DNA of 50,568 bases, taken from assembly GCA_037129495.1 (NCBI GenBank), contig JBAXUW010000004.1:1-50568 (forward strand). The letters run 5' to 3'. Position 1 is the stretch's first letter. Every line of letters begins with the position of its first letter. This DNA is from Planctomycetota bacterium (GTDB taxonomy: Bacteria; Planctomycetota; Planctomycetia; Pirellulales; UBA1268). Both the position numbers and the translations under genes were made by a program. The notes under the pieces were generated by a model. That model ran no database searches. It was not told the origin of the DNA and was given only the letters and a program-made list of their open reading frames with translations. Shown here one piece after another: positions 6,552-40,770 of this stretch.

Positions 6552-6727
6552 AGGGGAAAGTCTGCCAAAAACGTAGCCCAAAAGGTCTACCCAGAGTGAC
6601 GGCCGGTGATTCCGGACAGGGCCAGGAACCGATCTGGTTCAACAGCCCAAGGTTGGCAAGAATGAGAGTGCGAGTGGATGGATTCGCTTTGCGCCGCCAC
6701 CAGGGCCCGAGTCAGGGACGAGAGTTG

Positions 6728-7660
6728 ATGCCGCGTTTATCTCTCAAGCCGATCAGCGATGTTCTCACCTACGTGGCCGTCCGCGTGGCTATCTGCGTGG
6801 TGCAGTCGCTGCCGCGGAGCACCTGCGAGCGGACTGCGCGGGCGTTGTCTGATCTGCTTGCCAACCGGCTGAAGATTCGCCGCAGTGTGGTCCGCGACAA
6901 TCTCGCGCAGGCCTTTCCCGAGTGGACAGTAGAAGAGAGCCGTGAGGCGGCCCGCGGCATGTGGGAACACCTCCTCCTGATGGTGATTGAGATCGCCCAT
7001 TCCGACAGGGTGATCCGCAAGACCACCTGGCGGAAACATATGCGGATCCATGGCATTGAGGAGATGGTGCGAGAACTCTGGACCGACCGGCCGAAGGTGA
7101 TCCTCTCCGGCCACTATGGCAATTTCGAGATGTCGGCCTTTATTTTCGGGCTCTTCGGCTTTCGCATCTATTCGGTGGCACGCGAGCTCGACAATCCATA
7201 TCTCGACCGGTTCGTGACCAGGTTTCGCGAGGCCCGCGGCCAGATCATCCTCCCCAAGAAGGGGAGCGCGCCCGACGTGGCAGTGGTGCTTGAAAAAAAT
7301 GGCGTCATCGGCCTGCTCGGCGATCAGGCGGCGGGGCCGAAGGGCTGCTGGGTCGAGTTCTTTGGCCGGCCGGCCAGCGTTCACAAGGCGATCGGCGTGT
7401 TTGCGCTCTCCTCGGCGGCCCCGATGCTCGTCTTGTCGGCCACGCGGCGACGGCGGCTCTTCGACTACGACCTGCGGCTGGAGGGCATCGCCGATCCGGC
7501 GCAGGGGGGGCGAGAATGCGCTGATCTCAAAGCAATTTCCCAGTGGTATACGGCGCTCCTTGAGCGGGCGATCCGCCGCGACCCCACGCAATATTGGTGG
7601 GTCCACAGGCGATGGCGGGGATCGCCGCCAAAGGCTAAAGTGAAGCGGGCAGCCGCCTGA
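6728..7660 (+). CDS. lipid A lauroyl/lysophospholipid acyltransferase (LpxL/HtrB family)
   Basis: SGHYGNFE, LLGDQ, VEFFG, PTQYWWVHRRW. Confidence 0.88.
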   Translation: MPRLSLKPISDVLTYVAVRVAICVVQSLPRSTCERTARALSDLLANRLKIRRSVVRDNLAQAFPEWTVEESREAARGMWEHLLLMVIEIAHSDRVIRKTTWRKHMRIHGIEEMVRELWTDRPKVILSGHYGNFEMSAFIFGLFGFRIYSVARELDNPYLDRFVTRFREARGQIILPKKGSAPDVAVVLEKNGVIGLLGDQAAGPKGCWVEFFGRPASVHKAIGVFALSSAAPMLVLSATRRRRLFDYDLRLEGIADPAQGGRECADLKAISQWYTALLERAIRRDPTQYWWVHRRWRGSPPKAKVKRAAA

Positions 7661-7743
7661 TGCAGAGACGCTTTGTGCGTCCTGATCCCAAGCCTCGGCC
7701 GTCCGCCCGCCTCTTCTATCGGTCTGACCTCTTGGCCTTGGAC

Positions 7744-8085
7744 ATGAACGACTGGATCGCCATCGCCGATGTTTCCGAGTGCCCTTCTGGCATGAGCATT
7801 GAGCGACTGGCTGGCGGCCGTATGGTGGCCATTGCGAATGTCGAGGGGACGTTCCATGCGATCGACGGGCTCTGCCCGCATCAGGGCGGTCCGCTGGGCA
7901 CGGGGCCGCTCTGCGGCACGGTGCTGACCTGTCCTTGGCATGGCTGGCAGTTCGACGTGACCACCGGCCGGCACCGGCTCAGTGCTACGGTGCGGCAGCA
8001 CGTCTATGAGGTCAGGGTCGAGCATGGCCGGGTCCTTCTCAGACTCGCCGACAACCCATCCCCGAGAGTGGAGTCGCAGGCGTGA
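7744..8085 (+). CDS. Rieske [2Fe-2S] ferredoxin
   Basis: CPHQGGPL...CPWHGWQFD. Confidence 0.92.
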   Translation: MNDWIAIADVSECPSGMSIERLAGGRMVAIANVEGTFHAIDGLCPHQGGPLGTGPLCGTVLTCPWHGWQFDVTTGRHRLSATVRQHVYEVRVEHGRVLLRLADNPSPRVESQA

Positions 8086-9050
8086 TCGAGTTTCGCTGCT
8101 TTCGCAACGACGATCCGCCGCGGCTGGCCGACGCCTGGAGGTCGGCCGACCTGGGACCGTCGGCGATGCAGCCGATGACATCTGCCCTGCTTGAGGCAGC
8201 CGTGTTTTCGAAGCCCTATTTCGATAGAGAAGGCCTCATCGTCGCGGTCGAAGACGATCGTACAATCGGCTTCGCCCATGCCGCATTTGGACCCAATGCC
8301 GATCAGTCGGGGATCGACTGGAGTCTGGGTACGACTCTGCTGGCGGTGATCGTGCCGCATGCGGAACACGAAAGAATCGGCGCCGGCCTACTGGCCCGCT
8401 GTGAGGATTACCTGCGGGGCCGCGGGGCGACGACGCTCTTGGGCGGCGGATCGGCCGAGATGCGGAGCTTCTACATGGGGCTCTACGGCGGGGCCGATCT
8501 GCCGGGGATTCTCGATTCGTCGCCGGCGATGCAGCAGGTCTTTCGCAGTGCGGGATATGTCGAGGCGGCCCGCGTCGCCGTGCTGCGGCGGTCGCTCTCC
8601 GGTTTTCGACCGCCGGTCAACCGGCTGCAGCTAGCGATCCGGCGGAAGACAACGCTCCGGGCGATCGACGAGCCGTCGCGGCGCACTTGGTGGGAGGCCG
8701 CCACCACAACAGGCATGGCACTGCGACGCTATGAATTGCATGGGTCCGGCGATGACCTCCTCGGCGCCGCGTTGTTCTGGGACATGCAGCCGCTGGCCGC
8801 GGCTTGGGGGGTATCGGCCGCGGGGCTGATGCATATCGGCATCGAGGGGGGGCGGCGGCGGCAGGGGCTAGCGCACTACCTCGTCGCAGAGGCGTTGCAC
8901 GACCTGGCGGAGGAGGGGGTTTCACTTGCGGAGACACATGTCTCGGAGTCGAACGAGCCAGCGCTGCAGCTCTTCCAAAAGTTAGGGTTTGTCGCGGCCG
9001 AACATGGCACGCGCTTTCGGAAGGATGTGATGCGTGGAGGCGAGTTTTGA
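8082..9050 (+). CDS. tandem GNAT N-acetyltransferase
   Basis: RRRQGLA and NEPALQLFQKLGF motifs plus an N-terminal GNAT-like half; GTGA overlap with the Rieske gene. Confidence 0.8.
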   Translation: MIEFRCFRNDDPPRLADAWRSADLGPSAMQPMTSALLEAAVFSKPYFDREGLIVAVEDDRTIGFAHAAFGPNADQSGIDWSLGTTLLAVIVPHAEHERIGAGLLARCEDYLRGRGATTLLGGGSAEMRSFYMGLYGGADLPGILDSSPAMQQVFRSAGYVEAARVAVLRRSLSGFRPPVNRLQLAIRRKTTLRAIDEPSRRTWWEAATTTGMALRRYELHGSGDDLLGAALFWDMQPLAAAWGVSAAGLMHIGIEGGRRRQGLAHYLVAEALHDLAEEGVSLAETHVSESNEPALQLFQKLGFVAAEHGTRFRKDVMRGGEF

Positions 9051-9089
9051 AAACTTGCTGAAGAGCATAAGTTGGAAAACTTATCCCAC
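9034..9089. repeat. REP-like paired repeat (B + inverted A)
   Basis: GTGGAGGCGAGTTTTGAAAACTTGCTG followed by ATAAGTTGGAAAACTTATCCCAC. Confidence 0.7.
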
Positions 9090-9158
9090 AAGTGACAGGA
9101 TGACTCTGCTGACTTGAGCAGGGTCCGCTTTCGCCTCCCGTAAAAGTCGCCCCGCTTC

Positions 9159-10220
9159 ATGATGTTTCATCACCAGATCAGACTGCCACCGTTTCAGCCG
9201 CACCCCTGCCTGCGGGATGGGCATCTCCAGACGCTGGCCACTGCGGTCTGGCCACAGCAGGATGTCGAGCATCAGGCGGTGCCCCGGGAGGTTGACCTGG
9301 GCGACGGCGACGCGGTCGTCGTCCATGACGACTTGCCGCCCGGGTGGACCGTGGAAGACCCGGTGGCGATCCTCTCGCATGGTCTCTGTGAAAGCCACCG
9401 TGGTCCGCTGATCTCCCGGCTCGCCGCCCGGCTGGTGGCCCGGGGTGTGCGGGTTTTCCGCTGGGACATGCGGGGCTGCGGCGCTGGAATGGCGTTGGCC
9501 CGGCGGCCCTACCATGCAGGTTGCTCCGACGACCTGCAACGCGTCGTTGAAGCGGTGGTGGACTGGTGTGGTGTGGATGCTCGGGGCAGGCCGTCACCGA
9601 TCGCTCTGTTTGGCGTGTCGCTCTCGGGCAACGTATTGCTCAAATACCTGGGTGAGAATGGTGGCGACCAGCCCGAGCGGATTCCCGCGGCGGTGCGGCT
9701 GGCGATTGCAGTCAATCCACCGATCGACCTTTTAATGGGTGTCGAGAGTCTGGCCTCAGGCGGCATCCGTCGGGTGTACGACCGGTATTTTGTCCGCCGC
9801 CTCCTGCGGCACCTCGACGCCTGGCGACGTGTGCGGCCCGATGCGCCGCCACTACGGCCGGGGCCGCGGCCGCGGTCGCTGTGGGAATTTGACGACCGGT
9901 TTACCGCCCCGGCCCTGGGCTTTCCCGATGCCGAAGCCTACTACCGCGCGAGTAGCGCTTGCCCAGTGATCGGCGACATCCGAGTGCCCACTGTGATCAT
10001 CACGTCGCAGGATGATCCGCTTGTGCCCGCTGCCATGTTCGCCGCTGATTGTGTGAAGCTGCCGGAGGCAGTGCGGCTCGTGATGACTCGCCACGGTGGC
10101 CACGTTGGTTATATCGGTCGGCGTGGCACCGATCCCGATAGACGTTGGCTCGACTGGCGGGTGGTCGATCTTGTGACAGCGATCCGGCCCTCGCGGCAGC
10201 CTAGCGATCCTGCGGCGTAA
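9159..10220 (+). CDS. YheT-family alpha/beta hydrolase
   Basis: GHLQT, HGLCES, RGCG, YHAG, GVSLSG nucleophile elbow, DDPLV, GGHVG. Confidence 0.88.
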   Translation: MMFHHQIRLPPFQPHPCLRDGHLQTLATAVWPQQDVEHQAVPREVDLGDGDAVVVHDDLPPGWTVEDPVAILSHGLCESHRGPLISRLAARLVARGVRVFRWDMRGCGAGMALARRPYHAGCSDDLQRVVEAVVDWCGVDARGRPSPIALFGVSLSGNVLLKYLGENGGDQPERIPAAVRLAIAVNPPIDLLMGVESLASGGIRRVYDRYFVRRLLRHLDAWRRVRPDAPPLRPGPRPRSLWEFDDRFTAPALGFPDAEAYYRASSACPVIGDIRVPTVIITSQDDPLVPAAMFAADCVKLPEAVRLVMTRHGGHVGYIGRRGTDPDRRWLDWRVVDLVTAIRPSRQPSDPAA

Positions 10221-11079
10221 GCGATTCAAGATGCGACCGCAGGGTGGCGGTCAGGTCGGTGGCCGAGCCTTCGGCATACCGCAGCCGCGCGGAGAGGGGC
10301 GCCGTCTGGCCGTCGCGGCGGAGGTCGGCAAGATAATCCTGGAGCACGCGACGCCGCTCTTTTGTCGTGTTGAGGAGCCAGTGCGTCCAGCACCACGCCT
10401 CGGCATAGTGGTCTTGCGAGAGTTCTCCGGCAGATGCCAGCGCCTCCATCCGGTCGAGGTCGGGCCGCCACGTGCCTTCGAGCAATCGACCGGCGAGCTG
10501 CGCTACGTGCGCTGCGTGGATGCCCTGTTCGCTCCGTGGCAGTTCGAAAAACTCTGCCACTCCTTCGTCGAGCCAGAGCGGGATCGCAGGCACCACCGCA
10601 TGCACGTAGCCGTGCGTTGTCTCATGCCGGAGGTCTTCGGCAATCCGATCCTGCCAGACGGCGAAGACGGAAAGCGTGGTATCGGTTTCGACAAAAAAGG
10701 CCCGTCGCGCGGGAAAGCCGGGAAACTGGCGGGCTGCAAAGGCGTCGTAGCGGTCCTTACTTTCGAAGAGATAGAGGTGGACCGGCTCATCGGAGATCGG
10801 CAGGCCGAGCTGCTGGCTCACGTCTGACCGGAGGCTTTCGAGTTCGCGAACAATGCGGTGTTGTTCTGCCAGCGGGAAGTCGGCGTGGATGACCAGCTGG
10901 CCGGCGATAATTTCCGACCGTGAGGGCAGGCCCTTTCCAGCAACCGCATTCCAGTCTGGTCGAGCCGCCAGATGGGCGCAGCCGACCACCGCAGACAGCG
11001 CCGTTACGCTCGCAATCGCCAGATAAAAGAGGCGTGGTTTCAAGCCGCGGAGGGTAGCGAGCTGCTCCCCCCCGGCCAA
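10201..11079 (-). CDS. DUF1570-like zincin metallopeptidase, probable lipoprotein
   Basis: HETTH...PLWLDEGVAEFFE gluzincin-type motif; AVVGC lipobox-like segment. Confidence 0.75.
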   Translation of the reverse strand: MAGGEQLATLRGLKPRLFYLAIASVTALSAVVGCAHLAARPDWNAVAGKGLPSRSEIIAGQLVIHADFPLAEQHRIVRELESLRSDVSQQLGLPISDEPVHLYLFESKDRYDAFAARQFPGFPARRAFFVETDTTLSVFAVWQDRIAEDLRHETTHGYVHAVVPAIPLWLDEGVAEFFELPRSEQGIHAAHVAQLAGRLLEGTWRPDLDRMEALASAGELSQDHYAEAWCWTHWLLNTTKERRRVLQDYLADLRRDGQTAPLSARLRYAEGSATDLTATLRSHLESLTPQDR

Positions 11080-21431: not shown

Positions 21432-22748
21432 CTACCGGCGAATCGTCTCAGAGACGAGATGGCCAAAGAGCGTTTCCCGGCCGCGAAGCACGTAAAACTT
21501 GATCGGGTTTAAGTGCTCATCCTCCGCCTTATCGAGGATGTAGGCGATGTTGTCGGGAAGAATCGTCTCCCAGACATGCAGGCCCACGAGGATGTCGCCC
21601 GCCCGAATTCCCTGTTCGGTTGCGGATCCTCCTTGACGGACCTCGCTGACGAGCAGGCCGCCGCGATACCGCGACTGGAGCCGCTGCACCTTCGCTGCAG
21701 GCATCGCTTCGAGTCGTAAGCCAAGCTCCCGCCAGCAGCGTTCATCCACAGAGAGCACGTCGCGGCGGAGGGCCGCCAACGATAGGTCGATCTTCTCTTC
21801 ACCGTCGCCCCGCATCACCGTCAACGACACGCTCTCTCCCGCCCGGTGGCCGAGCAGTCCCCGCTCGATGTCGAGTGGCCGGGCCACTGGGAGTCCACCG
21901 ATCCGGGTGATCACGTCGCCCGCCCTCACGCCCACGCTTTCGGCAGGGCTCTGGCGATGCACTGCCTCGACGATCACGCCTCGCGGGCCGTCGATCCGTG
22001 TCACAATCCCATGCCACGTGTGATCCACGCGTTCGACTGAGAGTAGTTCGGCCACTACTTCAAGGACACGGTCGACTGGAATGGCGAAGCCGATCCCCTG
22101 AGCCCCCGCCCGCACCGCCACGTTAATGCCGATCATCTCGCCGTCGACGTTGAGGAGCGGGCCGCCGGAGTTGCCCGGGTTAATACTGGCGTCGGTCTGG
22201 ATGAGATCGTCGTAACGCTGCGTACGGCTGACCTCCACATCGCGGTGGAGAGCCGAGATAATGCCGCGGGTCACGGTGTGTTCGTAGCCGAAGGCATTGC
22301 CAAGTGCCAGCACCGTTTCACCGATCATGAGATCGGAAGAGGTGCCGATCGTGATCACGGGGAGCGGTGCGTCGTTCTCGATCTTGATGACGGCGAGGTC
22401 AGTCCGAGGATCGTGAGAGACAAGCGTGGCTGAGGTTGTCTTGCCCGAGGCGAGCGTGACCTCAATCCGCCGCACGCCCTCGACGACGTGGTAGTTGGTG
22501 ATGACATAGCCGCGGGCATCCACAACGACACCGGTCCCCATGCCGTTGACTCGCTTCAGTTCGGCGGTCGTCTCGTCGTCTGGATTCGGCACGAGCTTTT
22601 GCCCGTGGATATTGACGACGCTGTCACGCTGCGATTCGATCGCCCGCACGATGGCGGTGCGGCGGCCTTCGGCTGCTTGGCTTGGCCGCGGGCTTGCGGT
22701 TGCTCCCAGCAATGCCACGACCGAAAAAACAGCCCACTGACAGCGCAT
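21432..22748 (-). CDS. HtrA/DegP-family serine protease with two PDZ domains
   Basis: Signal peptide; TNYHVV, DLAV, QTDASINPGNSGGP. Confidence 0.92.
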   Translation of the reverse strand: MRCQWAVFSVVALLGATASPRPSQAAEGRRTAIVRAIESQRDSVVNIHGQKLVPNPDDETTAELKRVNGMGTGVVVDARGYVITNYHVVEGVRRIEVTLASGKTTSATLVSHDPRTDLAVIKIENDAPLPVITIGTSSDLMIGETVLALGNAFGYEHTVTRGIISALHRDVEVSRTQRYDDLIQTDASINPGNSGGPLLNVDGEMIGINVAVRAGAQGIGFAIPVDRVLEVVAELLSVERVDHTWHGIVTRIDGPRGVIVEAVHRQSPAESVGVRAGDVITRIGGLPVARPLDIERGLLGHRAGESVSLTVMRGDGEEKIDLSLAALRRDVLSVDERCWRELGLRLEAMPAAKVQRLQSRYRGGLLVSEVRQGGSATEQGIRAGDILVGLHVWETILPDNIAYILDKAEDEHLNPIKFYVLRGRETLFGHLVSETIRR

Positions 22749-22945
22749 GAACAATCAGCTCCCCAGACTCCCCACTTCTGTGCGGTCCGCGAACGGAGCG
22801 ACACAGCCTGCAATATGCAGATTGCATCGACCACCCGCGCCCCGCGCTCTACCACCCTCGACGCGGGCCGGCACAGCTTTCCCAGATGGTGGCGGGTGGC
22901 GGGTGGCCGCCGTTTCGCCGCCCTAGAGTAACGGCCTGGTAAAAA

Positions 22946-24239: not shown

Positions 24240-25463
24240 ATGCACGCAGAAGTAATTGCGATTGGTGACGAACTCACCACCGGGCAGCGGCTCGACACCA
24301 ACAGCCAGTGGCTCGCCACGGAGCTTGGGCTGATGGGCATTCCGGTCCATTTCCATACCACCGTCTGCGATACGTTTGCAGACGGGATTGAGGCCTTTCG
24401 CATTGCCGCCGCCCGGGCTGATATTGTCGTAGCCACCGGCGGACTCGGGCCTACGGCCGACGATCTCACGCGGGACGTCTTGGCGGCGGTCGCCGGCGTA
24501 CCGCTAAAACTCTCTGCCGCGGCCCTCCACGTGGTCGAGTCGCGGTTTTCGCGGCGGGGCGTGACGATGCCGGCGAGCAATCGACGGCAGGCGGAGTTTC
24601 CCGAGGGCAGCCGGATGATTCCGAATCCCGACGGTACCGCTCCCGGGATCGATCTCGATCTCAAGCGGCCCGACGGGGGCAGAAGCCGGGTCTTCACGCT
24701 GCCGGGCGTGCCTGGCGAAATGAAGACGATGTGGAAGGCCACGGTGGCTGGCGACCTGCTCGCCATGCTGCCGGAGGCGGGTGTCTTTGTGTATCGCCGG
24801 ATCAAATGTTTTGGGGCGGGTGAGAGCGCCGTTGAGGGCATGCTGCCCGACTTGATTCGCCGCGGCCGTGACCCGCTCGTCGGCATCACGGCGCACGAGG
24901 CGACGATCACGCTGCGAATCGTCGCCCGTGGTCGCGACGAAGCAGAGTGCCTGGCGAAGATCGCCCCGACGGAGCAGACGATTCGGGAGTGCCTCGGAGC
25001 CATCATCTATGGCACAGACGACGACGAAGTGGAGGATGCCGCAGTGCGGGCTCTGGCTCACGCCGGGCAGACGCTCGGCACGGTTGAGATCGGCACTGAG
25101 GGCCGCGTGGCAGCGCTCCTTGCGCAGGCGGAGTCGCGGCGACAGGCAGAAAATGCAGCGGAAAACCTGTTTCGCGGGGGTACAGTGCTGACTCGTAACA
25201 CCGCGGCCATCGCGGCCGAAATCGACGCCTTGGCCGAACGGGCCCGGACCGATTTCGGGGCCATGATCGGCCTCGCGATCGGAGCGGCCCGCCTCGGGCC
25301 CGAGGGCCGCAGCGTGGTCGATATTGCTCTGGCCGACGGGCAGCACATCCAGCGGATCGAGCACATGCTGGGAGGTGGCCCCCTGCTCGCCCTGTCGCGG
25401 GCGGCAAAGACCGCCATGGAACTGGTGCGGCAGCGGCTCGAACCCCGGACGCTTTCACCATGA
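24240..25463 (+). CDS. cinA: competence/damage-inducible protein A
   Basis: AEVIAIGDEL..G...DTNSQWL, TGGLGPTADDLT, GTAPG, LPGVPGEM, GAGES. Confidence 0.9.
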   Translation: MHAEVIAIGDELTTGQRLDTNSQWLATELGLMGIPVHFHTTVCDTFADGIEAFRIAAARADIVVATGGLGPTADDLTRDVLAAVAGVPLKLSAAALHVVESRFSRRGVTMPASNRRQAEFPEGSRMIPNPDGTAPGIDLDLKRPDGGRSRVFTLPGVPGEMKTMWKATVAGDLLAMLPEAGVFVYRRIKCFGAGESAVEGMLPDLIRRGRDPLVGITAHEATITLRIVARGRDEAECLAKIAPTEQTIRECLGAIIYGTDDDEVEDAAVRALAHAGQTLGTVEIGTEGRVAALLAQAESRRQAENAAENLFRGGTVLTRNTAAIAAEIDALAERARTDFGAMIGLAIGAARLGPEGRSVVDIALADGQHIQRIEHMLGGGPLLALSRAAKTAMELVRQRLEPRTLSP

Positions 25464-26590
25464 GTTTTATTGTCGAGCCAGCCGCGGCGGGGCAGGGGTC
25501 TGGCCGCCGCACGCTTGTTTTGTTTGCGGGGCTCGTGACACTTGTCGGACTGATCGTCTGGCCGTCACTTGCCGGCCGCATCCAGTATGCCAAGACGCGG
25601 GCCGAACTGGCGGCGATCCGCGATGCGGCGGCCGGCGCTGAGTTGAGGTCGGTTGGCAAACTCTTCACGACCCTGGCGCGGGTCATTGGGCCGGCGGTTG
25701 TGAACGTGACGTCGAAGAAGCGGCTGCAGTCGCTCGCCGATGAGATCGGGGCGCTCCGTGGCGAGACGCCGACTGGAATCACCGACGAATCGGTCGGCTC
25801 GGGCGTGATCGTCGAAGCCGACGGCGTGATCATCACCAACTATCACGTCGTCGCGCAGAGTGACGAGATCGATGTGCTCTTATCAGACGGCCGCCGCTTC
25901 CAGGCCGATCTCGTGGGAGCCGACGCCGCCACTGATCTGGCTGTTCTGCGGATCAAAGCCCAAAATCTCCCGAAGGCCGAGTGGGCCAACAGCGACGAAG
26001 TCGAAGTGGGCGAGATGGCATGGGCGATTGGCAATCCCTTCGGGCTCGACCGCACGATCACCTACGGCATCGTCAGCGCCGTGGGCCGGCGGGGCGTAGT
26101 GGGCAACCCGTTTCAGGAGTTTCTGCAGACCGACGCCTCGATCAATCCGGGCAATTCTGGTGGGCCGCTGGTCGATGTGCACGGCCATGTGATGGGGATC
26201 ACGACGGCGATTATCGGCAAGGGCTTTCGCGGGATCGGCTTTGCGATTCCGAGCAACACGGCCCGGCGGGTCTGCGAGGAGATTTGTACGACGGGGCATG
26301 TTGAACGCGGCTACCTCGGCATGGCGCTTCGGGAACTGCCAGTGGGTTTCGCGGGCCGGCCGGGCGCCGCCGTGGCGGCGGTTGAGCCAAAATCGCCTGC
26401 CGCAGAGGCTGGCGTCAAGGCTGGCGACATCGTGCTCAGGTTTGACGGGGAAGATATCACCGAACCAACAACGCTCGTATTGCTACTCACGCGGTCTCCG
26501 ATTGGTGCCGAGCTACCGCTTGAGATCCTTCGCGACGGTGAGCCCACGACGATCACTGTGAAAGTCGGCCGCCGGCCCCACGACCGGTAG
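25460..26590 (+). CDS. HtrA/DegS-like serine protease, N-terminal TM and one PDZ
   Basis: TNYHVV, DLAV, QTDASINPGNSGGP; ATGA overlap with cinA. Confidence 0.92.
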   Translation: MSFIVEPAAAGQGSGRRTLVLFAGLVTLVGLIVWPSLAGRIQYAKTRAELAAIRDAAAGAELRSVGKLFTTLARVIGPAVVNVTSKKRLQSLADEIGALRGETPTGITDESVGSGVIVEADGVIITNYHVVAQSDEIDVLLSDGRRFQADLVGADAATDLAVLRIKAQNLPKAEWANSDEVEVGEMAWAIGNPFGLDRTITYGIVSAVGRRGVVGNPFQEFLQTDASINPGNSGGPLVDVHGHVMGITTAIIGKGFRGIGFAIPSNTARRVCEEICTTGHVERGYLGMALRELPVGFAGRPGAAVAAVEPKSPAAEAGVKAGDIVLRFDGEDITEPTTLVLLLTRSPIGAELPLEILRDGEPTTITVKVGRRPHDR

Positions 26591-26668: not shown

Positions 26669-29600
26669 CTATGGCTGCGGATCGGCCGGAGGTGCGTCCT
26701 CGGCGGACGGCTCGTCGAGAAGCTTAGCGAAGTTGAAGTCGTCGTCGCCAAAGCCTCCTTTCAACGCAAAACCGAAGTTGTCGCCAGCCCCGCCCACAGT
26801 CGGCTGGACCGCGGCCGCCGTGGGCCGGTCTGACGGCGTGCCCTGTGGCCGTGCCCTCATCGTGGCCGACACGCTCGCGAGCCACTCAGCCGTTGGGAAG
26901 GCATACGGTCGAAACTTTTCCAGCGTGCCGGTCTCCTCGTGGATGAAGAGCGCTCGCTGCGGGCCGAGCTTCACGGCGGCGGGGCTATCGACCAATTGGC
27001 TTGAGTCAGAGCCGCTCATCTGGAAGAGCACCCGCAGTTCAAACTCCTTGAGCGTGCCACGTTCAAACGTCCGCTGCAGATTCGTGAGCGAGTCGCACCA
27101 AATCAGCAGGTGGACGCCGACTGGCGGTCCATCCTTGAGAAGCGTGCCTAGGTTTTGCGCGGGCGTAGCCTTCTGCTCGCCGCCCGGCGACGAATAGCCA
27201 AAGTCGTTTTCGTTGCGCCGCAGTTCGCGGAAGCGGGCCAGATCACGGATGATCACGTAGACCGCTTCGCCGTCGAGCACCTGCTCATCGATTCGCCGCC
27301 GGACCTCGTCGGCTAGCCGCTGCATCGCGTCGCCCACGGCGAGCCGGCCCACCATCTCGATCTCATGCGGGAAAGACGGCACGAGTTTTGAGAGCAGGAG
27401 GTCGGGCTTCTCCTCGGCGATCGCCGGCTCGAAGACGACGAGCCGGGCCGCTCGCCCGAGTGCACCGCCATGAAAGGGATCGTGCGAGGCGGCGAGGCTG
27501 ACCATCGACATCGCCAGCAGACTCACGGCCAGATCCTCGCGCTGGCCGACGATGAGGAGGTTTGCACCGCCCTGACGGCGGAAGATCGCGGCGGTCGGAT
27601 CCTTGATGGCGATCGCGTCACCCAGCCACGCCAGGGGTGGTGTCTGTGACTTTCCGCCCACGGTGCCGGCCCGAAGCAGTTCGGCCAGCAGCGGATTCCC
27701 CGCCGGATCAGCCGCCTCGTTGCCGTCGAACACCATCCGGGGCAGGGTGGGGATATCGGTCCGCCGGTCGGCCAGCCTGCGGAGTGCGCCGAGGTAGCGC
27801 TCCCGCCGCTCGTCGTTTAAAAACACGACCTGAAACGGATTGTTGCCCGCGACCATGCCGTTGGCGTCATTGTAAATGGCCTCGCCGGGCCGCGTCAGTA
27901 GGCGGGCGGCGGTGTTGTCTTCGCTGAGGATGAGGCTGGAGTCGGCCTCGTTGCACTGCAGCGCCACGCGGACCGCCATCTGCCCCATCGTGGCGCGGGG
28001 CAGGCTATACGAGCCGCCGAGCGTCTGGGAGCCGAGAATGACATGCATGCCAAAGGCTCGGCCCTGGCGGACGAGCCGGTCGAGAATCAAGGTCGCATCC
28101 TGGGCGATCTTGTCGTCCTCGACAAAGATCTCCTGAAACTCGTCGATGATCAGCAGGATGCGGGGCATCGGCTCCGACTTGCTGGCATTGCGGAACCCGG
28201 CCACATCCTGAACCGCAAATTCACGAAACACGTCGCCACGTCGCTTCAGTTCGCGGTCGAGCTGCTCGAGCACCGACAGACCAAACTCTCGTTCGCTCTC
28301 GATGGCGATCACGCGGGCATGCGGCAGTTTGTAGTGATCGTAGAGCTTGAATTCCACCCCCTTTTTAAAGTCAATGAGATAAAACTGGATCTCGTTGGGG
28401 CTGTAGTTGAGGGCGAGGCTCGTGATCAGCGCGTGCATGAGCGTAGATTTTCCAGAGCCCGTTTTGCCGGCGATGAGCGCGTGTTGGCTCGTGCCCTTGC
28501 CGAGCTTCATATACTGCGTCTTCTTAGCCCCGGCGGGGCCTAGCGGCGCAAGCACCTCGCTCGCCGTGCTGCCCGTCCACCAGTCTTCTTCCTTAGGCGC
28601 CACGCGATCGAACGGCACTTCCACTCGCTTGGCCGCCTTGGCCGCCTTGCCGACCCGCTGGATGATCTGCGTAAACAGCTCATCCGATGGCGCCTGTTCC
28701 ACCGTCAGCGGCCATTTGCCAAACTCAGGGTCGTTCCAGGTATAGACGCCATCCTTGAGCGTGAGCGCCGTGGCATACTTCTCGATGTCGTTTGCGCTAA
28801 AATTCGACGGCATGTGCTGCGACGTGTCGATCGAGACGATCGTGTAGACGCCGCAGCGGGCACCTGAGGCGGCAATGCTCGCCAGCCGACGGGCGCTGGT
28901 CTCAGTGAAGTTGGCGGGGAAATTCGCCACCACGACAAAGCGATACGGCTCTGGCACCTCGGCGATGGCGTTGTAGTCGCCGATTGAGTGGTATTCGTTC
29001 CGCAGGTATTTCTGGATCACGAGTTCGATCTGCTCGGTGATGTCTGCCAAGCACTGCTCAATCTGCGGTGGCTCCGTCCAGATCCGGCTCGTGACGAGCA
29101 GTTCGTCGTAATCGGCCAGATGCATGAAGCCGGCAAACTGCTTGCCGAGACCGAGCGGGTCGATGATCGTGAAGCGGCTCTGACCCGCCGGAATGCCAGT
29201 GGCGATCCGCAGCATGAGCGCCTGCATCATGTCGGAGGCAGTCTCCTTCTGATCGCCAGTCGTCTTAATAAGCAGTGACGCTCCCACGGGGAAGGGCATC
29301 AACGCGGGCTGTGTCCAGGCAGTCGGGCCGAAGGCGTTGAGCGCCGGTCGCGATGACACACCTCCTGGCATTTTCTCCAGGCTGAGACTGAGCTGCCCAA
29401 ACCGCAGCCCCGGCGGCGACGCGGTCGGCAGTGGCACTTCGTCGCGAGCCAATTCATTCCAAGGGAGGAAGGCCGCGGCGTCGATCAGGTTGGCTTCGTC
29501 GTAGCTGGCGGCGGTCTCCGTGCGGGCGGTCTGCCAGGCCTCTGTCATTTCCCGCCAACGGTCGTCACGGTTGCGTTCGGCGCTGACTAGCCTTTCGTCA

Positions 29601-30808
29601 CGGGTCCGCGTGAGCTGTTCCAGGTGTTCGGTGCGATCGGCGGCCAACTTCTCCAGCCGCGCAGGGTATTTCTGTGCGGCCGCCTCGAGTGTGGTGGCTT
29701 TCTTTTTCTCGATCTTCGCGACGGCGTCGTTGTATTTTGTTTCGAGATCCGCGTTTTGCTGATCGCGTTTTCCAACGCCCGCAGTGATGTCTGCCGCGTC
29801 CTTGCTTTTGCGTTGCTGCGTCTCCTCGACAAACGTGGCGTCGAGCTTCACGAGTTGGGCGTCGTGCCGCTTTTTCACATAAACAGTGGTGGCGGCAAGG
29901 CACTGCCGCGTCTGGTCGATCGAGCGTGCGAGTTCGGTCCGCAGAGCCGTGGCCTGTTCACGGGCGGCCCGTCGCAACCGGCCGATCTGCCAAAGCCCAA
30001 GCCCCATGCCGATTCCCGCGATCGTGACCAGCCCCGCGCCGGCGGCTACCGCCTTGGTGGACAGAGCCTCAGGGAGCGTGCCTGGCGTGAAGAAGAAGGC
30101 CGCCGCCGCGGCGATGAGCCCCAGCAAGAGTGGCAGCAGAATCGCAGCGGCCCGGGTGCTGCTGGAGAATGCTCTGGCCACTGTCTTGAGGCCGACGAGC
30201 GCGGCGAGTTTTTCAGCCACGGCCTTCCGGAGCTGTTCGAGCGTCGTGAGCAGCGCCGACCCCGTAGGCAGTGGCTCGGCGGCGGTCGCGGGCTCTATGG
30301 ACGGGGCTGACTTGATGCCGCAGGCGGTCAAAACACTCAGGCTGCGGGCATCAGCCTCGTCGAGCTGGTTGCCCGTGTCGGCGAGTTCTTTTTCAGCCCG
30401 CCGGAGAATCTTTGCCGGTTCCTTCCGCTTCTCCTTGAAGACCTCTTTCGACGAATTCTCTTCATACTGGGCATCTTCCTTGAGCTGCTGGGCCTGTTTC
30501 TCCCAGGCGCGGGCGATCGTCGCGGCCAGACCCTTCCGCTGGGTGCTGAGCTTAACGAGATCGGCGGCCGCCTCGCTGGTGGCCTTGTCGATCACCGCGG
30601 CCTGTTCACGGCGGGTCGCATCACTCTCCCGGACGTACTTCTCCTCCACCGACGTTATAGAGGCAGCGGCCTGCGCTTGCGCGGCTGCGGTCTCCGTCTC
30701 GTGTTCCAAGGTGATGTCGCGCTCAAGTTGGCTGCGGACGGAGGCGGCTTGGCGGAGGCGGTTTACCTGCTCACGAAGCAGTTGGAGGTCGTAGGCGTTG
30801 TGGCTCAC
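26669..30808 (-). CDS. membrane-anchored FtsK/SpoIIIE-domain ATPase (EccC/EssC-like)
   Basis: HALIAGKTGSGKST Walker A, YLIDFKKGVEF, LLIIDEFQE Walker B, QGRAFGMHVILGSQ; two TM helices between coiled coils; GTG start estimated. Confidence 0.88.
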   Translation of the reverse strand: MSHNAYDLQLLREQVNRLRQAASVRSQLERDITLEHETETAAAQAQAAASITSVEEKYVRESDATRREQAAVIDKATSEAAADLVKLSTQRKGLAATIARAWEKQAQQLKEDAQYEENSSKEVFKEKRKEPAKILRRAEKELADTGNQLDEADARSLSVLTACGIKSAPSIEPATAAEPLPTGSALLTTLEQLRKAVAEKLAALVGLKTVARAFSSSTRAAAILLPLLLGLIAAAAAFFFTPGTLPEALSTKAVAAGAGLVTIAGIGMGLGLWQIGRLRRAAREQATALRTELARSIDQTRQCLAATTVYVKKRHDAQLVKLDATFVEETQQRKSKDAADITAGVGKRDQQNADLETKYNDAVAKIEKKKATTLEAAAQKYPARLEKLAADRTEHLEQLTRTRDERLVSAERNRDDRWREMTEAWQTARTETAASYDEANLIDAAAFLPWNELARDEVPLPTASPPGLRFGQLSLSLEKMPGGVSSRPALNAFGPTAWTQPALMPFPVGASLLIKTTGDQKETASDMMQALMLRIATGIPAGQSRFTIIDPLGLGKQFAGFMHLADYDELLVTSRIWTEPPQIEQCLADITEQIELVIQKYLRNEYHSIGDYNAIAEVPEPYRFVVVANFPANFTETSARRLASIAASGARCGVYTIVSIDTSQHMPSNFSANDIEKYATALTLKDGVYTWNDPEFGKWPLTVEQAPSDELFTQIIQRVGKAAKAAKRVEVPFDRVAPKEEDWWTGSTASEVLAPLGPAGAKKTQYMKLGKGTSQHALIAGKTGSGKSTLMHALITSLALNYSPNEIQFYLIDFKKGVEFKLYDHYKLPHARVIAIESEREFGLSVLEQLDRELKRRGDVFREFAVQDVAGFRNASKSEPMPRILLIIDEFQEIFVEDDKIAQDATLILDRLVRQGRAFGMHVILGSQTLGGSYSLPRATMGQMAVRVALQCNEADSSLILSEDNTAARLLTRPGEAIYNDANGMVAGNNPFQVVFLNDERRERYLGALRRLADRRTDIPTLPRMVFDGNEAADPAGNPLLAELLRAGTVGGKSQTPPLAWLGDAIAIKDPTAAIFRRQGGANLLIVGQREDLAVSLLAMSMVSLAASHDPFHGGALGRAARLVVFEPAIAEEKPDLLLSKLVPSFPHEIEMVGRLAVGDAMQRLADEVRRRIDEQVLDGEAVYVIIRDLARFRELRRNENDFGYSSPGGEQKATPAQNLGTLLKDGPPVGVHLLIWCDSLTNLQRTFERGTLKEFELRVLFQMSGSDSSQLVDSPAAVKLGPQRALFIHEETGTLEKFRPYAFPTAEWLASVSATMRARPQGTPSDRPTAAAVQPTVGGAGDNFGFALKGGFGDDDFNFAKLLDEPSAEDAPPADPQP

Positions 30809-30907
30809 AGCGGCGGATCCAAAGGGACTAAGGAACGGGAGGGATGGAAATATCTGCTTCGGAGGTGACTGCCCAGGGCATCCTTGCGACGCAGTCTGCC
30901 GTCTTTC

Positions 30908-30981
30908 GTGGGATAAGTTTCCAACTTGTCCGCTTCGTCTTCGTCTTTTTCGGCACGTTGGGAAACTCGTCTCCACGGGGG
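30908..30981. repeat. REP-like paired repeat (A + inverted B)
   Basis: GTGGGATAAGTTTCCAACTTGTCC...GGCACGTTGGGAAACTCGTCTCCACGGGGG. Confidence 0.75.
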
Positions 30982-31027
30982 TCTGCTGAACGGTGGCGTC
31001 AGCAGGGCGGGAAAATCGATCGGGGTG

Positions 31028-31258
31028 TCAATCATCGACGTCGTTAACATCTCGGCTGGCTCGGGCGAGCACCTCGGCCAGCCGCCCGATTGCCTCAAGC
31101 GTTTCCTTGACCCGCGGAGTCAGGGGCTCGATGTGCTCCTTGTGAAAGGCCCTGCTGGTGGAATCGTCCCAAGTGTCACGGGCCGCCTCCCACTTCAAGT
31201 GGAGTGTCTTCAGGGCGAGTGCCAGTTTCGCCGCACCGCCGGAGAGATCGCCCCTCAT
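31028..31258 (-). CDS. small WXG100-like helical hairpin protein
   Basis: 76 aa; amphipathic helices around W..ARDTWDD..SRAF; ATGA overlap with the upstream gene. Confidence 0.7.
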   Translation of the reverse strand: MRGDLSGGAAKLALALKTLHLKWEAARDTWDDSTSRAFHKEHIEPLTPRVKETLEAIGRLAEVLARASRDVNDVDD

Positions 31259-31884
31259 GCCCGGCCTCTGGCTCGATCGGCCGGTGGGGCTTGCGGCGCG
31301 GCAGCAGGCAACGCGTGGCCACCCACAATCTCATCCACAGGTCGGGCGACCGACGCTTCCGTGCCGCTTCCAGCACCGGTGCCGGCACCGCCAGCCGGCG
31401 ACGCTGTATGAGTGTAATGGTCGAGCGCGCGAAGCATTCGCTCTAGACGTGCTAGCGCCTTGGGGCAGTCGATGTCGATCACCTCGCGAAAGCGGGTGAG
31501 CCGCACGCCTGTTTCCTGCGTCTGCTGTCGTACGACCGGCGTCCACTTCCGCACCGCCTCTTCCTTCCGCTCGGCGCGGGCCAGCCGGTGCTTGGCCTTT
31601 TCCAAAACCTTCTTTTCCTCGTTGCAGGCCGGCGTAGTGTCGCCCACCTTCTTATAGGTGCGGCAGTGCTGCAGGTCTTTCATCGCCTGATTGACTGCCT
31701 CAGCCGCCCGCCGGACCTCCGTCTTCCAGTAGGCGGCCTGATCGATGCAGATCCAGTCGGATATTCGCTGCGACTGCATCTCGACCTCGCCGAGAGCCTG
31801 GCCGCTCTCATGGGCAAACGCAGCGAGCGCCGCCTTGACAAAGGCGAGCGTATCGATCGATTTGACTTCAGCCTGCGTTGACAT
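31255..31884 (-). CDS. helical hypothetical protein of the WXG100/FtsK locus
   Basis: About 209 aa coiled-coil-like sequence, CRTY...PAC, low-complexity tail; sits between the two WXG100-like genes. Confidence 0.7.
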   Translation of the reverse strand: MSTQAEVKSIDTLAFVKAALAAFAHESGQALGEVEMQSQRISDWICIDQAAYWKTEVRRAAEAVNQAMKDLQHCRTYKKVGDTTPACNEEKKVLEKAKHRLARAERKEEAVRKWTPVVRQQTQETGVRLTRFREVIDIDCPKALARLERMLRALDHYTHTASPAGGAGTGAGSGTEASVARPVDEIVGGHALPAAAPQAPPADRARGRA

Positions 31885-31910
31885 GAAATAAATTCCTGGA
31901 TTTGCTGGCG

Positions 31911-32183
31911 TCAACGCTGCTGTTGGTATTCTTCGACCCGCTCTGCCTTGCGGATGAGGTAGGGAACATAATCTTCGGTGGCTTCGACGAAGCGAGCGAA
32001 GGTACTGAGTTGCTGCTCAAACTCCTCCGTAAACTTCTGCTGTTCTTGGTCGCGCCAGGTGGAGCTCAGGGCCGCCAGTTGCCGCTGCACACCCTGCATC
32101 TGGGCCATGACTTCGGTGCTGAAAAAACGCAGTCGCGACGCAAACCGCCGTAGCTCCTGCGGATCGACGATGACCTGTCCCAT
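31911..32183 (-). CDS. WXG100 family (ESAT-6-like) protein
   Basis: 90 aa; MGQVIVDPQELRRFA...LSSTWRDQEQQKF...LIRKAERVEEY, classic VdPeeL start and central W-x-(G/D) turn. Confidence 0.88.
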   Translation of the reverse strand: MGQVIVDPQELRRFASRLRFFSTEVMAQMQGVQRQLAALSSTWRDQEQQKFTEEFEQQLSTFARFVEATEDYVPYLIRKAERVEEYQQQR

Positions 32184-39947: not shown

Positions 39948-40667
39948 TCAGCCCGACACCCGTTCGGGAAGATAGAGCAGTCGGCCGCAGCTCCGGCACA
40001 TCACCACCTTGCCCGTGAGGAGTTCGGAATACATATTCCCGGTGATCTGGCGGAAGCAACCCCCGCAGCTCTCGCCCTCAAGCGGCGCCATGCCTTCGGC
40101 GCCCTTCTGCTTGACCGCTCGATCGTAGAGGCTGCGAACGTCGTCGGGCAGTTCCCTCTCAGTGACTGCGAGCTCGACGCCAAGCCGCCGCACCTCGCTG
40201 TCGAGCTGCGTGGCCTCGGTAGCTACGCGGGCCTTGATCTCGGCGAGTGTCTGGCGGGCAGCCGCCACGGCGGCCTCAGCCGAGGGAAGCGTCTTCTTGA
40301 CCGTGTCGATCCGTTCGAGCCCCTCAAGGATCTCGTCTTCGAGCACTTTTGTGGCCATCTTGTCGGCCGCGATCTGCTCGGTGAGGAGCTGGTATTCGCG
40401 GTTCGTCTTGCAAGCGTTGAGCTTTGCACCCAAATCGTTGATTTTTGACTCGGCTGATTTCAGCTGCAGTTGCTTCTGGTCAGCTGCCATCTTGGCCTTC
40501 TTAATCTCTTCTAACACGCCGGTTTTGCCTGCCTCGACCGTCTCGACCTGTGCGGTGTGGGCCGCGATCTGCCGTGGACCGGCACTGATCCGCCCCTGTA
40601 GATCGGAGAGCTGCGTATGGATGCGGTGAAGCGTCCGCATAATCTCAATGTTGACGGCAGTGGACAT
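39948..40667 (-). CDS. coiled-coil C4 zinc-ribbon protein (DUF164/CT398-like)
   Basis: Long coiled coil, KTNREY, CGGC...CRSCGRLLY; typical position downstream of rpoD. Confidence 0.85.
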   Translation of the reverse strand: MSTAVNIEIMRTLHRIHTQLSDLQGRISAGPRQIAAHTAQVETVEAGKTGVLEEIKKAKMAADQKQLQLKSAESKINDLGAKLNACKTNREYQLLTEQIAADKMATKVLEDEILEGLERIDTVKKTLPSAEAAVAAARQTLAEIKARVATEATQLDSEVRRLGVELAVTERELPDDVRSLYDRAVKQKGAEGMAPLEGESCGGCFRQITGNMYSELLTGKVVMCRSCGRLLYLPERVSG

Positions 40668-40731
40668 GAAATAGCTTTCGGCGCTGTTCTTAGGAGTCTT
40701 CCCGCCCGCAGAGTTTACCACAACTAAGGCC

Positions 40732-40770
40732 AAAAATCAGCGGGCCAGACGCTCTTGCGCCCGGCCCGCT
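40732..40770 (-). terminator. probable intrinsic terminator downstream of rpoD
   Basis: Minus strand AGCGGGCCGGGCGC-AAGA-GCGTCTGGCCCGCT followed by GATTTTT. Confidence 0.6.

Follow-up and report, generated by a model that had tools for sequence, protein, structure and literature searches.

The closest described relatives of the locus presented here have appeared in the literature at some distance from one another. Footnote 6 to Table 1 of Zhang et al. 2012 (Biol Direct 7:18) sets out, for Gram-negative lineages, a class that combines solo WXG proteins with a distinct YueA-like ATPase. In the case of Helicobacter pylori, a review describes HP0062 as a helical hairpin that forms a four-helix-bundle dimer, carries WRD in place of WXG and is clustered with an FtsK/SpoIIIE gene; the HP0062/HP0066 pair is there termed a minimal type VII set. 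In the part of Bell et al. 2024 (eLife) that deals with it, an EssC-like module is appended to Type III-A CoCoNuT operons: in its EssC homologue the central one of three ATPase domains alone is live, and a coiled coil of at least 200 residues precedes them at the N-terminus; the operons also encode two WXG100 proteins, one having the motif and the other lacking it, and a coiled-coil protein to which a nuclease-like domain is fused. The present analysis concerns a stretch of 50,568 nucleotides (the window) from a freshwater planctomycete of the Pirellulales (assembly GCA_037129495.1, contig JBAXUW010000004.1, positions 1 to 50,568), in which four genes follow one another head to tail along the minus strand (26669-32183), co-oriented as an earlier reading of the letters alone (the original prediction) had stated. 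These genes, which we call the cassette, encode W1, a WXG100 protein; H209, a helical protein; W2, a divergent WXG100-like protein; and a large membrane ATPase. Their class is already in print, and the cassette adds to a known, unstudied kind; the claim that it is an undescribed system falls before the note of Zhang et al. 2012, the account of HP0062/HP0066 and the near-identical module described in the relevant part of Bell et al. 2024.

We propose that the cassette is a stand-alone member of the class made of solo WXG proteins and a three-domain YueA/EssC-like ATPase, that is, a minimal relative of type VII secretion systems (T7SS) that exports small proteins to the periplasm, and we hold this to be slightly better than an even bet (about 0.55). 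Periplasmic export by the cassette is plausible but unproven. The stripped-down module of WXG100 proteins and an EccC/EssC-type ATPase seen by the original prediction is supported by the identity of the ATPase and by the searches for partner proteins. New in the present analysis are the conserved four-gene grammar across the Planctomycetota, the finding that the genes co-occur even where they are not linked, the DUF-like domain of EccC type and the membrane hairpin conserved in the ATPase, and the assignment of H209 to a large family that has no name and whose C-terminal module varies.

In inheritance, the four genes act as a single unit. Matches to the ATPase at the level of orthologues are present in 18 of the 19 same-genus genomes, in 5 of 5 other genera of the family and in 8 of 16 other families of the order, the remaining matches of the search (about 1e-9) being FtsK. 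Of the 24 loci from these genomes, 19 show the complete series W1-H209-W2-ATPase; among the five incomplete ones, four are cut by the edge of the locus or contig, and the fifth, L022, has room upstream and no small genes. In the rest of the phylum the full order is found in 12 of 15 loci, all three exceptions belonging to one family, f20. With its gene order kept throughout the phylum, the cassette goes far beyond a chance arrangement, and the four-gene linkage on which the original prediction relied is conserved. Furthermore, among 401 evenly sampled Planctomycetota genomes, 49 have H209, 51 the ATPase (E<=1e-60) and 48 both, counts that come from related genomes and are not independent trials. 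H209 without the ATPase is seen in one genome, which is 87% complete and has the gene at a contig end, and the ATPase without H209 in three. Of the 20 genomes of family f20, the 13 that have H209 are also those that have the ATPase, and the other seven have neither; in 12 of these 13 the genes are not adjacent: in five they lie 0.45-2.4 Mb apart on one contig and in seven on different contigs. That the two occur together even when unlinked is the strongest indication obtained here of parts working jointly. Among the 29 neighbourhoods compared, no further gene family recurs in more than five. A contig scan, taken to its best 80 loci, returned only close Pirellulales-type relatives and has no bearing on other phyla.

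Two kinds of deviating loci were also recorded. In L022 (G038:C141), the ATPase is 51% identical over residues 370-1383, and the roughly 7.7 kb upstream of it hold no match to W1, H209 or W2. Two genomes of 9.3-9.5 Mb from family f27 (G048 and G216) contain ATPase-like frames of 961-1008 residues (E 1e-240 to 1e-249) and no match to H209; these frames may represent a variant that is shorter or has other partners.

The ATPase is of the EccC/EssC kind and is not an FtsK, and the names given to its orthologues in public annotation (FtsK, DNA translocase, DNA segregation ATPase, EcfA2) are wrong. Sequence search sees a single domain in it, FtsK_SpoIIIE of Pfam (PF01580, E 1.5e-30), in line with the membrane FtsK-type ATPase of about 1380 residues that had been predicted. 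The NCBIfam models of EssC, EccCa and EccCb match it at 6e-32 to 5e-29 versus 4e-6 for FtsK, with scores that stay far below the equivalog cut-offs (110, 110 and 101 bits versus 778, 509 and 347 for TIGR03928, TIGR03924 and TIGR03925, respectively). Among proteins of the PDB, phmmer finds EccC at 1.7e-32, EccC5 at 1e-27 and YukB at 5e-23 versus FtsK at 6e-10, the best solved sequence matches of the live domain being the first ATPase domain of EccC, EccC5 and YukB, above FtsK and TcpA. The AlphaFold2 model of the last 931 residues, built from 17 sequences (predicted local distance difference test score, pLDDT, 80.5), comprises three alpha/beta domains and a disordered tail; its best Foldseek match is the cytoplasmic region of EccC with its three domains (4nh0), at E 5e-31 over 971 columns, and it aligns to FtsK at about 1e-10 over 319-442 columns.

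The closest plasmid homologue of the live domain (41.8% identical, E 2e-69) is a protein of 1322 residues encoded at 6709-10677 of the Rhodococcus sp. plasmid NZ_CP126457.1 (L128). It carries an N-terminal TerD domain and has TerD-family neighbours, and after it come genes encoding 314, 73 and 87 residues, the product of the last being weakly WXG100-like (17.5 bits). In a domain tree of 17 rows with long branches and no EssC, a 97/92 split groups all eight planctomycete domains, this Rhodococcus homologue and the D1 and D2 domains of EccC, and sets apart the FtsK of the genome itself, TcpA/TcpB and three FtsK-like proteins from plasmids. The grouping of the ATPase had been fixed beforehand as a check, and by NCBIfam, PDB, structure and tree it goes with EccC and not with FtsK or the conjugative ATPases. 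A rival explanation would make the protein a DNA translocase (FtsK, SpoIIIE or conjugative-coupling type) whose gene stands by chance beside genes for small helical proteins. The public names of the orthologues point that way, and the single P-loop domains align to FtsK and TcpA at similar Z-scores (23-24); the case for EccC rests on the DUF match and the tandem layout, not on Z-scores alone. However, a separate true FtsK (213 bits) is encoded on another contig of the genome, EccC/EssC lead in the sequence scores by over 20 orders of magnitude, the protein has the EccC-type DUF-like domain, FtsK and TcpA stand apart from it in the tree, its co-occurrence with WXG100-type genes is strict, and no relaxase or mobile-element genes lie nearby. 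We regard a DNA translocase as very improbable.

Hydropathy shows the ATPase as a probable inner-membrane protein anchored by a two-helix hairpin, with both of its large ends predicted in the cytoplasm (Table 1). At the position of the hairpin, the hydropathy exceeds 1.6 (19-residue window) in 25 of 25 orthologues, with a clear pair of helices in 24 and a single run in one; the sequence of the hairpin itself diverges among them, though the hydrophobic pair stays. The N-terminal region of about 210 residues matches no Pfam family, and neither it nor the DUF-like region nor the last domain has a sequence match in Pfam or the PDB. A charged stretch without known family leads from the hairpin to the DUF-like domain, whose model is aligned by VIA-align to the DUF of EccC5 (8rin_B) with a Z-score of 14.9 (root-mean-square deviation, rmsd, 4.2; 220 residues aligned), to YukB (9qks_H) with 14.4 and to EccC3 (6umm) with 14.4, all of these alignments covering model residues 1-277. 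Two P-loop-fold domains follow it in the 931-residue model, and not three as in D1-D3. The last of them aligns to D2 of EccCb1 (9jv8) with a Z-score of 22.9 (rmsd 2.6, 236 aligned), to D3 of EssC (6tv1) with 17.8, and also to D3 entries of EccC. In the tail, the consensus of 17 orthologues contains the motif F-N-F-x-K-x-L-D, which could be a docking or autoinhibitory peptide.

Table 1. Coordinates of the cassette genes, of the segments of the ATPase and of one further gene in the window.
Feature	Position in the window	Strand	Description
W1	31911-32183	(-)	90 residues; Pfam WXG100; HP0062 type; W-R-D at hairpin bend
H209	31255-31884	(-)	209 residues; long helical hairpin and disordered tail; large unnamed family
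W2	31028-31258	(-)	76 residues; divergent WXG100-like; invariant W-x6-W-x-D
ATPase	26669-30808	(-)	EccC/EssC-type, membrane; 1379 residues from GTG at 30808
N-terminal cytoplasmic region of ATPase	30176-30808	(-)	about 210 residues; putative coiled coil from charged, repetitive sequence
Membrane hairpin of ATPase	29981-30151	(-)	two hydrophobic helices, 12-residue loop
EccC/YukB 'DUF'-like degenerate P-loop-fold domain of ATPase	28634-29464	(-)	no Pfam match
Intact ATPase domain, the only one	27734-28567	(-)	FtsK/SpoIIIE P-loop
Walker A GKTGSGKST	28442-28468	(-)	invariant in 17 of 17 orthologues; middle domain only
Walker B DEFQE	28130-28144	(-)	invariant in 17 of 17 orthologues; middle domain only
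Degenerate C-terminal P-loop-fold domain of ATPase	26852-27730	(-)	without Walker A lysine; resembles D2/D3 of EccC/EssC
Disordered C-terminal tail of ATPase	26672-26812	(-)	pLDDT <50; model residues 885-931
LpxL-type acyltransferase	6596-7660		Lip_A_acyltrans, 131.8 bits

The first of the small proteins, W1, is the WXG100 protein of 90 residues that had been predicted: residues 4-85 match positions 2-83 of the 86 in the Pfam profile (PF06013) with 40.4 bits, the cut-off being 27.3. Among 13 aligned orthologues, with identity down to 51%, 28 columns are invariant; they include the bend T/S-W-R-D-Q-E, with W-R-D in place of W-x-G in all 13, and P-x-L-x-R-K-A-E-R near the C-terminus, and the proteins end in an invariant Y-x-x-Q-[RK]. 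No N-terminal signal peptide is discernible by eye. Among solved structures, the W1 profile finds H. pylori HP0062 first (3FX7/2GTS, E 4e-9) and then Bacillus EsxB, and the alignment with HP0062 pairs TWRDQEQQKF of W1 with SWRDARRDKF. The full-length match to this hairpin structure suggests that W1 folds as a helical hairpin too. Some records whose W1 is 77-96% identical bear the titles Candidatus Kuenenia or Chitinophagaceae (L034, L040, L047, L048, L087, L089 and others); they are probably mislabelled or mis-binned assemblies.

The second small protein, W2, had been described as WXG100-like and ATGA-coupled to the preceding gene; the coupling is read directly in the sequence, where the TGA of H209 overlaps the ATG of W2, and the likeness is weak. 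Five of 13 orthologues match WXG100 at E<=0.01 (best 6.4e-5) and none matches another family, residues W23, W30 and D32 are invariant, and the W1 profile cross-matches two W2 open reading frames (ORFs) at 2-3e-4. The nearest named Atlas cluster is WXG100 at 0.85, a lead only. The W-x-D that the original prediction saw in both small proteins is invariant among their orthologues. The distant orthologues of W2 (L020, L021, L023, L025, L026 and L032) end in [RQH]-[DE]-C, where the family of the window has R-D-V. A complex prediction with W1, W2 and residues 1-165 of H209 scored 0.78 versus 0.84 for a control in which W1 was replaced, and is evidence neither way.

In all cassette loci compared, the gene of H209 stands between those of W1 and W2; like these two helical proteins, H209 lacks a signal peptide. 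Its AlphaFold2 model (15 sequences, mean pLDDT 80.6) is one long hairpin with helices at 9-77 and 88-160, followed by a disordered tail at 165-209 rich in Pro, Ala, Ser and Thr; the helical protein of about 209 residues in the original prediction is thereby confirmed, and of the hairpins that it expected from modelling, that of H209 is the one given by such a model. Protein and profile searches relate H209 to no Pfam family and to no sequence in the PDB, and its profile gathers 2,920 clusters at E<=1e-3, 906 of them at E<=1e-30, among 1.84 billion cluster representatives. Against the PDB, Foldseek returns generic long hairpins only (best E 0.044), and a wide VIA search with the model gives a best Z-score of 10.5, to SteB-RipA, YscO, colicin and others, which is not meaningful for long helices. 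In homologues drawn from 150 listed, all 13 of those with 338-380 residues match the Imm33-like domain (PF24719) at the C-terminus, 12 above the Pfam cut-off and one at 19.1 bits (P0011, P0023, P0041, P0056, P0072, P0078, P0087, P0110, P0119, P0125, P0126, P0134 and P0146), and the seven with 255-297 residues give no match at all. An Imm33-like search of the cassette's own genome gave no match, but its control was silent and the result is uninformative. Because its C-terminal end varies between lineages, H209 is most likely a carrier or cargo subunit. Two further ideas about this family were abandoned. A disulfide between Cys74 and Cys87, which held in the alignment of 15 sequences, is weakened by the presence of both cysteines in only 68 of 151 family members; and a 367-residue frame in G043, taken for a fusion, owes its extra length to the region upstream, not downstream.

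The variable end of H209 also bears on a second rival explanation, a toxin-delivering T7SS in which the cassette would be the core machine and the cargo would be unlinked polymorphic toxins with WXG-like or H209-like leaders. The tables of Zhang et al. 2012 list many planctomycete toxin domains with a T7SS (WXG) export route, the H. pylori island called a WXG100 secretion system in the literature consulted contains an HNH/EndoVII nuclease, and the homologues of H209 carry a swappable C-terminal domain. However, in a six-frame scan of this genome, which is 92% complete, the profiles of W1, H209 and W2 match the cassette genes only (next best E 0.1-1.5), no WXG100 match above the Pfam cut-off lies outside the cassette, no toxin-immunity pair recurs beside it in the 29 neighbourhoods, and the same footnote of Zhang et al. 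2012 terms these WXG domains 'solo'. Toxin delivery appears unlikely to us.

The model that we favour, export of the cassette's own small proteins, would work as follows. Like EccC and EssC, the ATPase would form a hexamer. W1, W2 and the hairpin of H209 would assemble into helical bundles, which the degenerate last domain of the ATPase would recognise, and the hydrolysis of ATP in the single live domain would drive these bundles across the cytoplasmic membrane into the periplasm, H209 acting as a carrier with an end that differs from lineage to lineage. For the cassette, neither an outer-membrane step nor a toxin cargo is evident.

Several observations weigh against export. Known T7SS channels need partner membrane proteins. 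In this genome, EccB (PF05108), EccD (TIGR03920), YukC/EssB (PF10140) and EssA (PF10661) are not found by searches whose controls worked, a result that covers neither EccE, the control of which was silent, nor EsaA and MycP, which were not searched; the partner genes that the original prediction could not recognise are thus, for these four families, not found in the 92%-complete genome either, and no other neighbour is conserved. The sole membrane part of the system would be two helices per ATPase subunit, joined by a loop of at most 12 residues. The YxxxD/E export signal of the EsxB/CFP-10 type is found in neither W1 nor W2, as had been noted before. W2 scores 18.2 bits with WXG100, below the Pfam cut-off, and its profile and that of W1 do not match each other (hhalign probability 1.5%). 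The pair of cysteines at the hairpin tip of H209, which would have hinted at an oxidising compartment, is weakly kept, C87 alone being present in 129 of 151 members. Finally, secretion has been shown for no member of this class in the account of the review.

The same observations give room to a third rival explanation, namely a membrane-tethered conflict or stress module in which the ATPase would remodel or gate W1, H209 and W2 at the inner face of the membrane, without export. A module may serve non-secretory settings, as suggested by the reported defence-island homologues without membrane helices and by the TerD form of the Rhodococcus plasmid. Indeed, a near-identical module without membrane helices is found inside Type III-A CoCoNuT defence operons, for which the authors favour a different mechanism in the part of their paper that discusses it, and a WxG/FtsK pair is linked, in the corresponding literature, to TerY-P triads in H. 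pylori and other genomes. The N-terminal TerD domain and TerD neighbours of the Rhodococcus homologue, and the failure to find EccB, EccD, EssA and YukC/EssB or any recurrent candidate in the neighbourhoods, agree with such a role. PADLOC gives only P-loop-level matches, to SspH, mads_8 and HerA. On the other hand, the membrane hairpin is kept in all the planctomycete orthologues compared, the context is one of housekeeping genes, and the cassette has neither defence genes nearby nor conserved neighbours. To our knowledge, all characterised WXG100 and EccC/EssC relatives act in export. We consider a non-secretory module possible but doubtful.

A bolder form of the export model would take the lack of partners at face value: a type VII-like exporter of diderm bacteria with one membrane component, in which the hairpins of the hexameric ATPase would be the sole channel, H209 the carrier and the WXG-like hairpins its escort into the periplasm. 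The C-terminal modules of H209 would then be swappable, with none here, the Imm33-like domain in other planctomycetes and a nuclease-like domain in the CoCoNuT forms. This proposal is tentative, and we would not give it better odds than the non-secretory module.

The boundaries of the genes and their surroundings complete the description. The genome measures 3.8 Mb in 496 contigs, the G+C content of the window is 63-65%, and the cassette is chromosomal. The stop codon of W1 and the ATG of H209 are separated by 26 nt. An ORF of 219 codons from a TTG is the alternative for H209, and its start is placed at the ATG, giving 209 residues, because the conservation among orthologues begins only there, at MSTQ. 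The ORF of the ATPase is open over 26669-30976 (1435 residues), the stretch above 30808 being unconserved in relatives; the alignment of orthologues is conserved from VSHNAYD, where an identical public protein of 1379 residues (P0151) also begins, and its start is placed at the GTG for these two reasons. A gap of about 219 nt (30809-31027), untranslated, lies between W2 and this conserved start. A scan for promoters and terminators was uninformative: its single promoter-like site falls within the ATPase gene, and its terminator-like sites are dispersed inside genes.

The predicted housekeeping flanks and planctomycete host are upheld: the window encodes two HtrA-like proteases, CinA, a chlorite-dismutase-family protein, SelO, RpoD, DnaG, MurB, a Mur ligase and IspG, and no defence, relaxase or mobile-element genes are seen among the neighbours of the cassette. 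The nearby LpxL-like gene that had been announced is also there (Table 1). The HtrA-like Trypsin_2/PDZ proteases are at 21432-22754 (-) and 25460-26590 (+), and the latter is convergent with the ATPase gene, which it adjoins in at least seven loci of the same genus, in L027 and also in L021, a locus from another family, and not beyond. A protein with a CT398-like coiled-coil hairpin and a C4 zinc ribbon, encoded at 39948-40733 (-) beside rpoD and dnaG, is unrelated to the cassette.

Could a type VII-like function exist in bacteria with an outer membrane? The question is acknowledged in the field and, according to the review, has never been tested, and our literature search found no experimental work joining type VII or WXG100 with planctomycetes. 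The cassette suits this question, being single-copy, chromosomal, made of four genes, phylum-wide and present in single-contig genomes. Should it export its own small proteins with no help from EccB/D/E or EssA/B, the cassette would mark out the minimal functional core of type VII secretion. Should it not, pairs of WXG100 proteins and EssC-like ATPases would have a second, non-secretory role, with a bearing on the defence-island versions. Were the hairpins of the ATPase the only channel, the cassette would provide signal-peptide-independent export in cells of the Gram-negative type and the smallest working type VII secretion.

In its architecture, the ATPase resembles EccC of T7SSa and EssC/YukB of T7SSb by its two-helix anchor, its DUF and its FtsK-type domains, and the WXG100 genes adjoin it in the same way. 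It differs from them by the two P-loop domains, in place of three, that follow the DUF-like domain, and by a putative coiled coil at the N-terminus, which occupies the place of the FHA domains of EssC and replaces the FHA or short N-terminus of these proteins. W1 and W2 likewise depart from EsxA/EsxB by a WxD bend where these have WxG, and by the lack of YxxxD/E. In T7SSb, an LXG toxin and its small helical Lap partners form a pre-secretion complex, and their gene pattern is a small hairpin, a long hairpin with a variable C-terminal end and a small hairpin. The gene pattern of the cassette is the same, by analogy only, H209 having neither a sequence match nor a specific fold match to any solved protein and no toxin domain being present.

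W1 shares with HP0062 the W-R-D bend and the K-F that follows it, whereas the HP0062/HP0066 pair comes from another phylum. The CoCoNuT-linked module is similar, as far as its description goes, in its domain plan, its N-terminal coiled coil, its two WXG100 proteins and its separate coiled-coil protein. By the same description, the CoCoNuT-linked ATPases have no membrane helices and are part of defence operons, whereas the planctomycete hairpin is conserved and the locus stands alone; and their coiled-coil protein bears a nuclease-like domain where H209 ends in a disordered tail. The class of Zhang et al. 2012 is the nearest: its footnote names planctomycetes, solo WXG proteins and hosts outside the Firmicutes and Actinobacteria, and describes three HerA/FtsK-fold domains with the middle one alone intact, exactly as in the ATPase presented here. 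That footnote speaks of mobile versions of T7SS, whereas the cassette lies in a housekeeping context and W1 and H209 have no tblastn match among 72,556 plasmids. To the class as set out in the footnote, which mentions neither an H209 component nor a second WXG-like gene nor a membrane hairpin, the planctomycete cassette adds all three.

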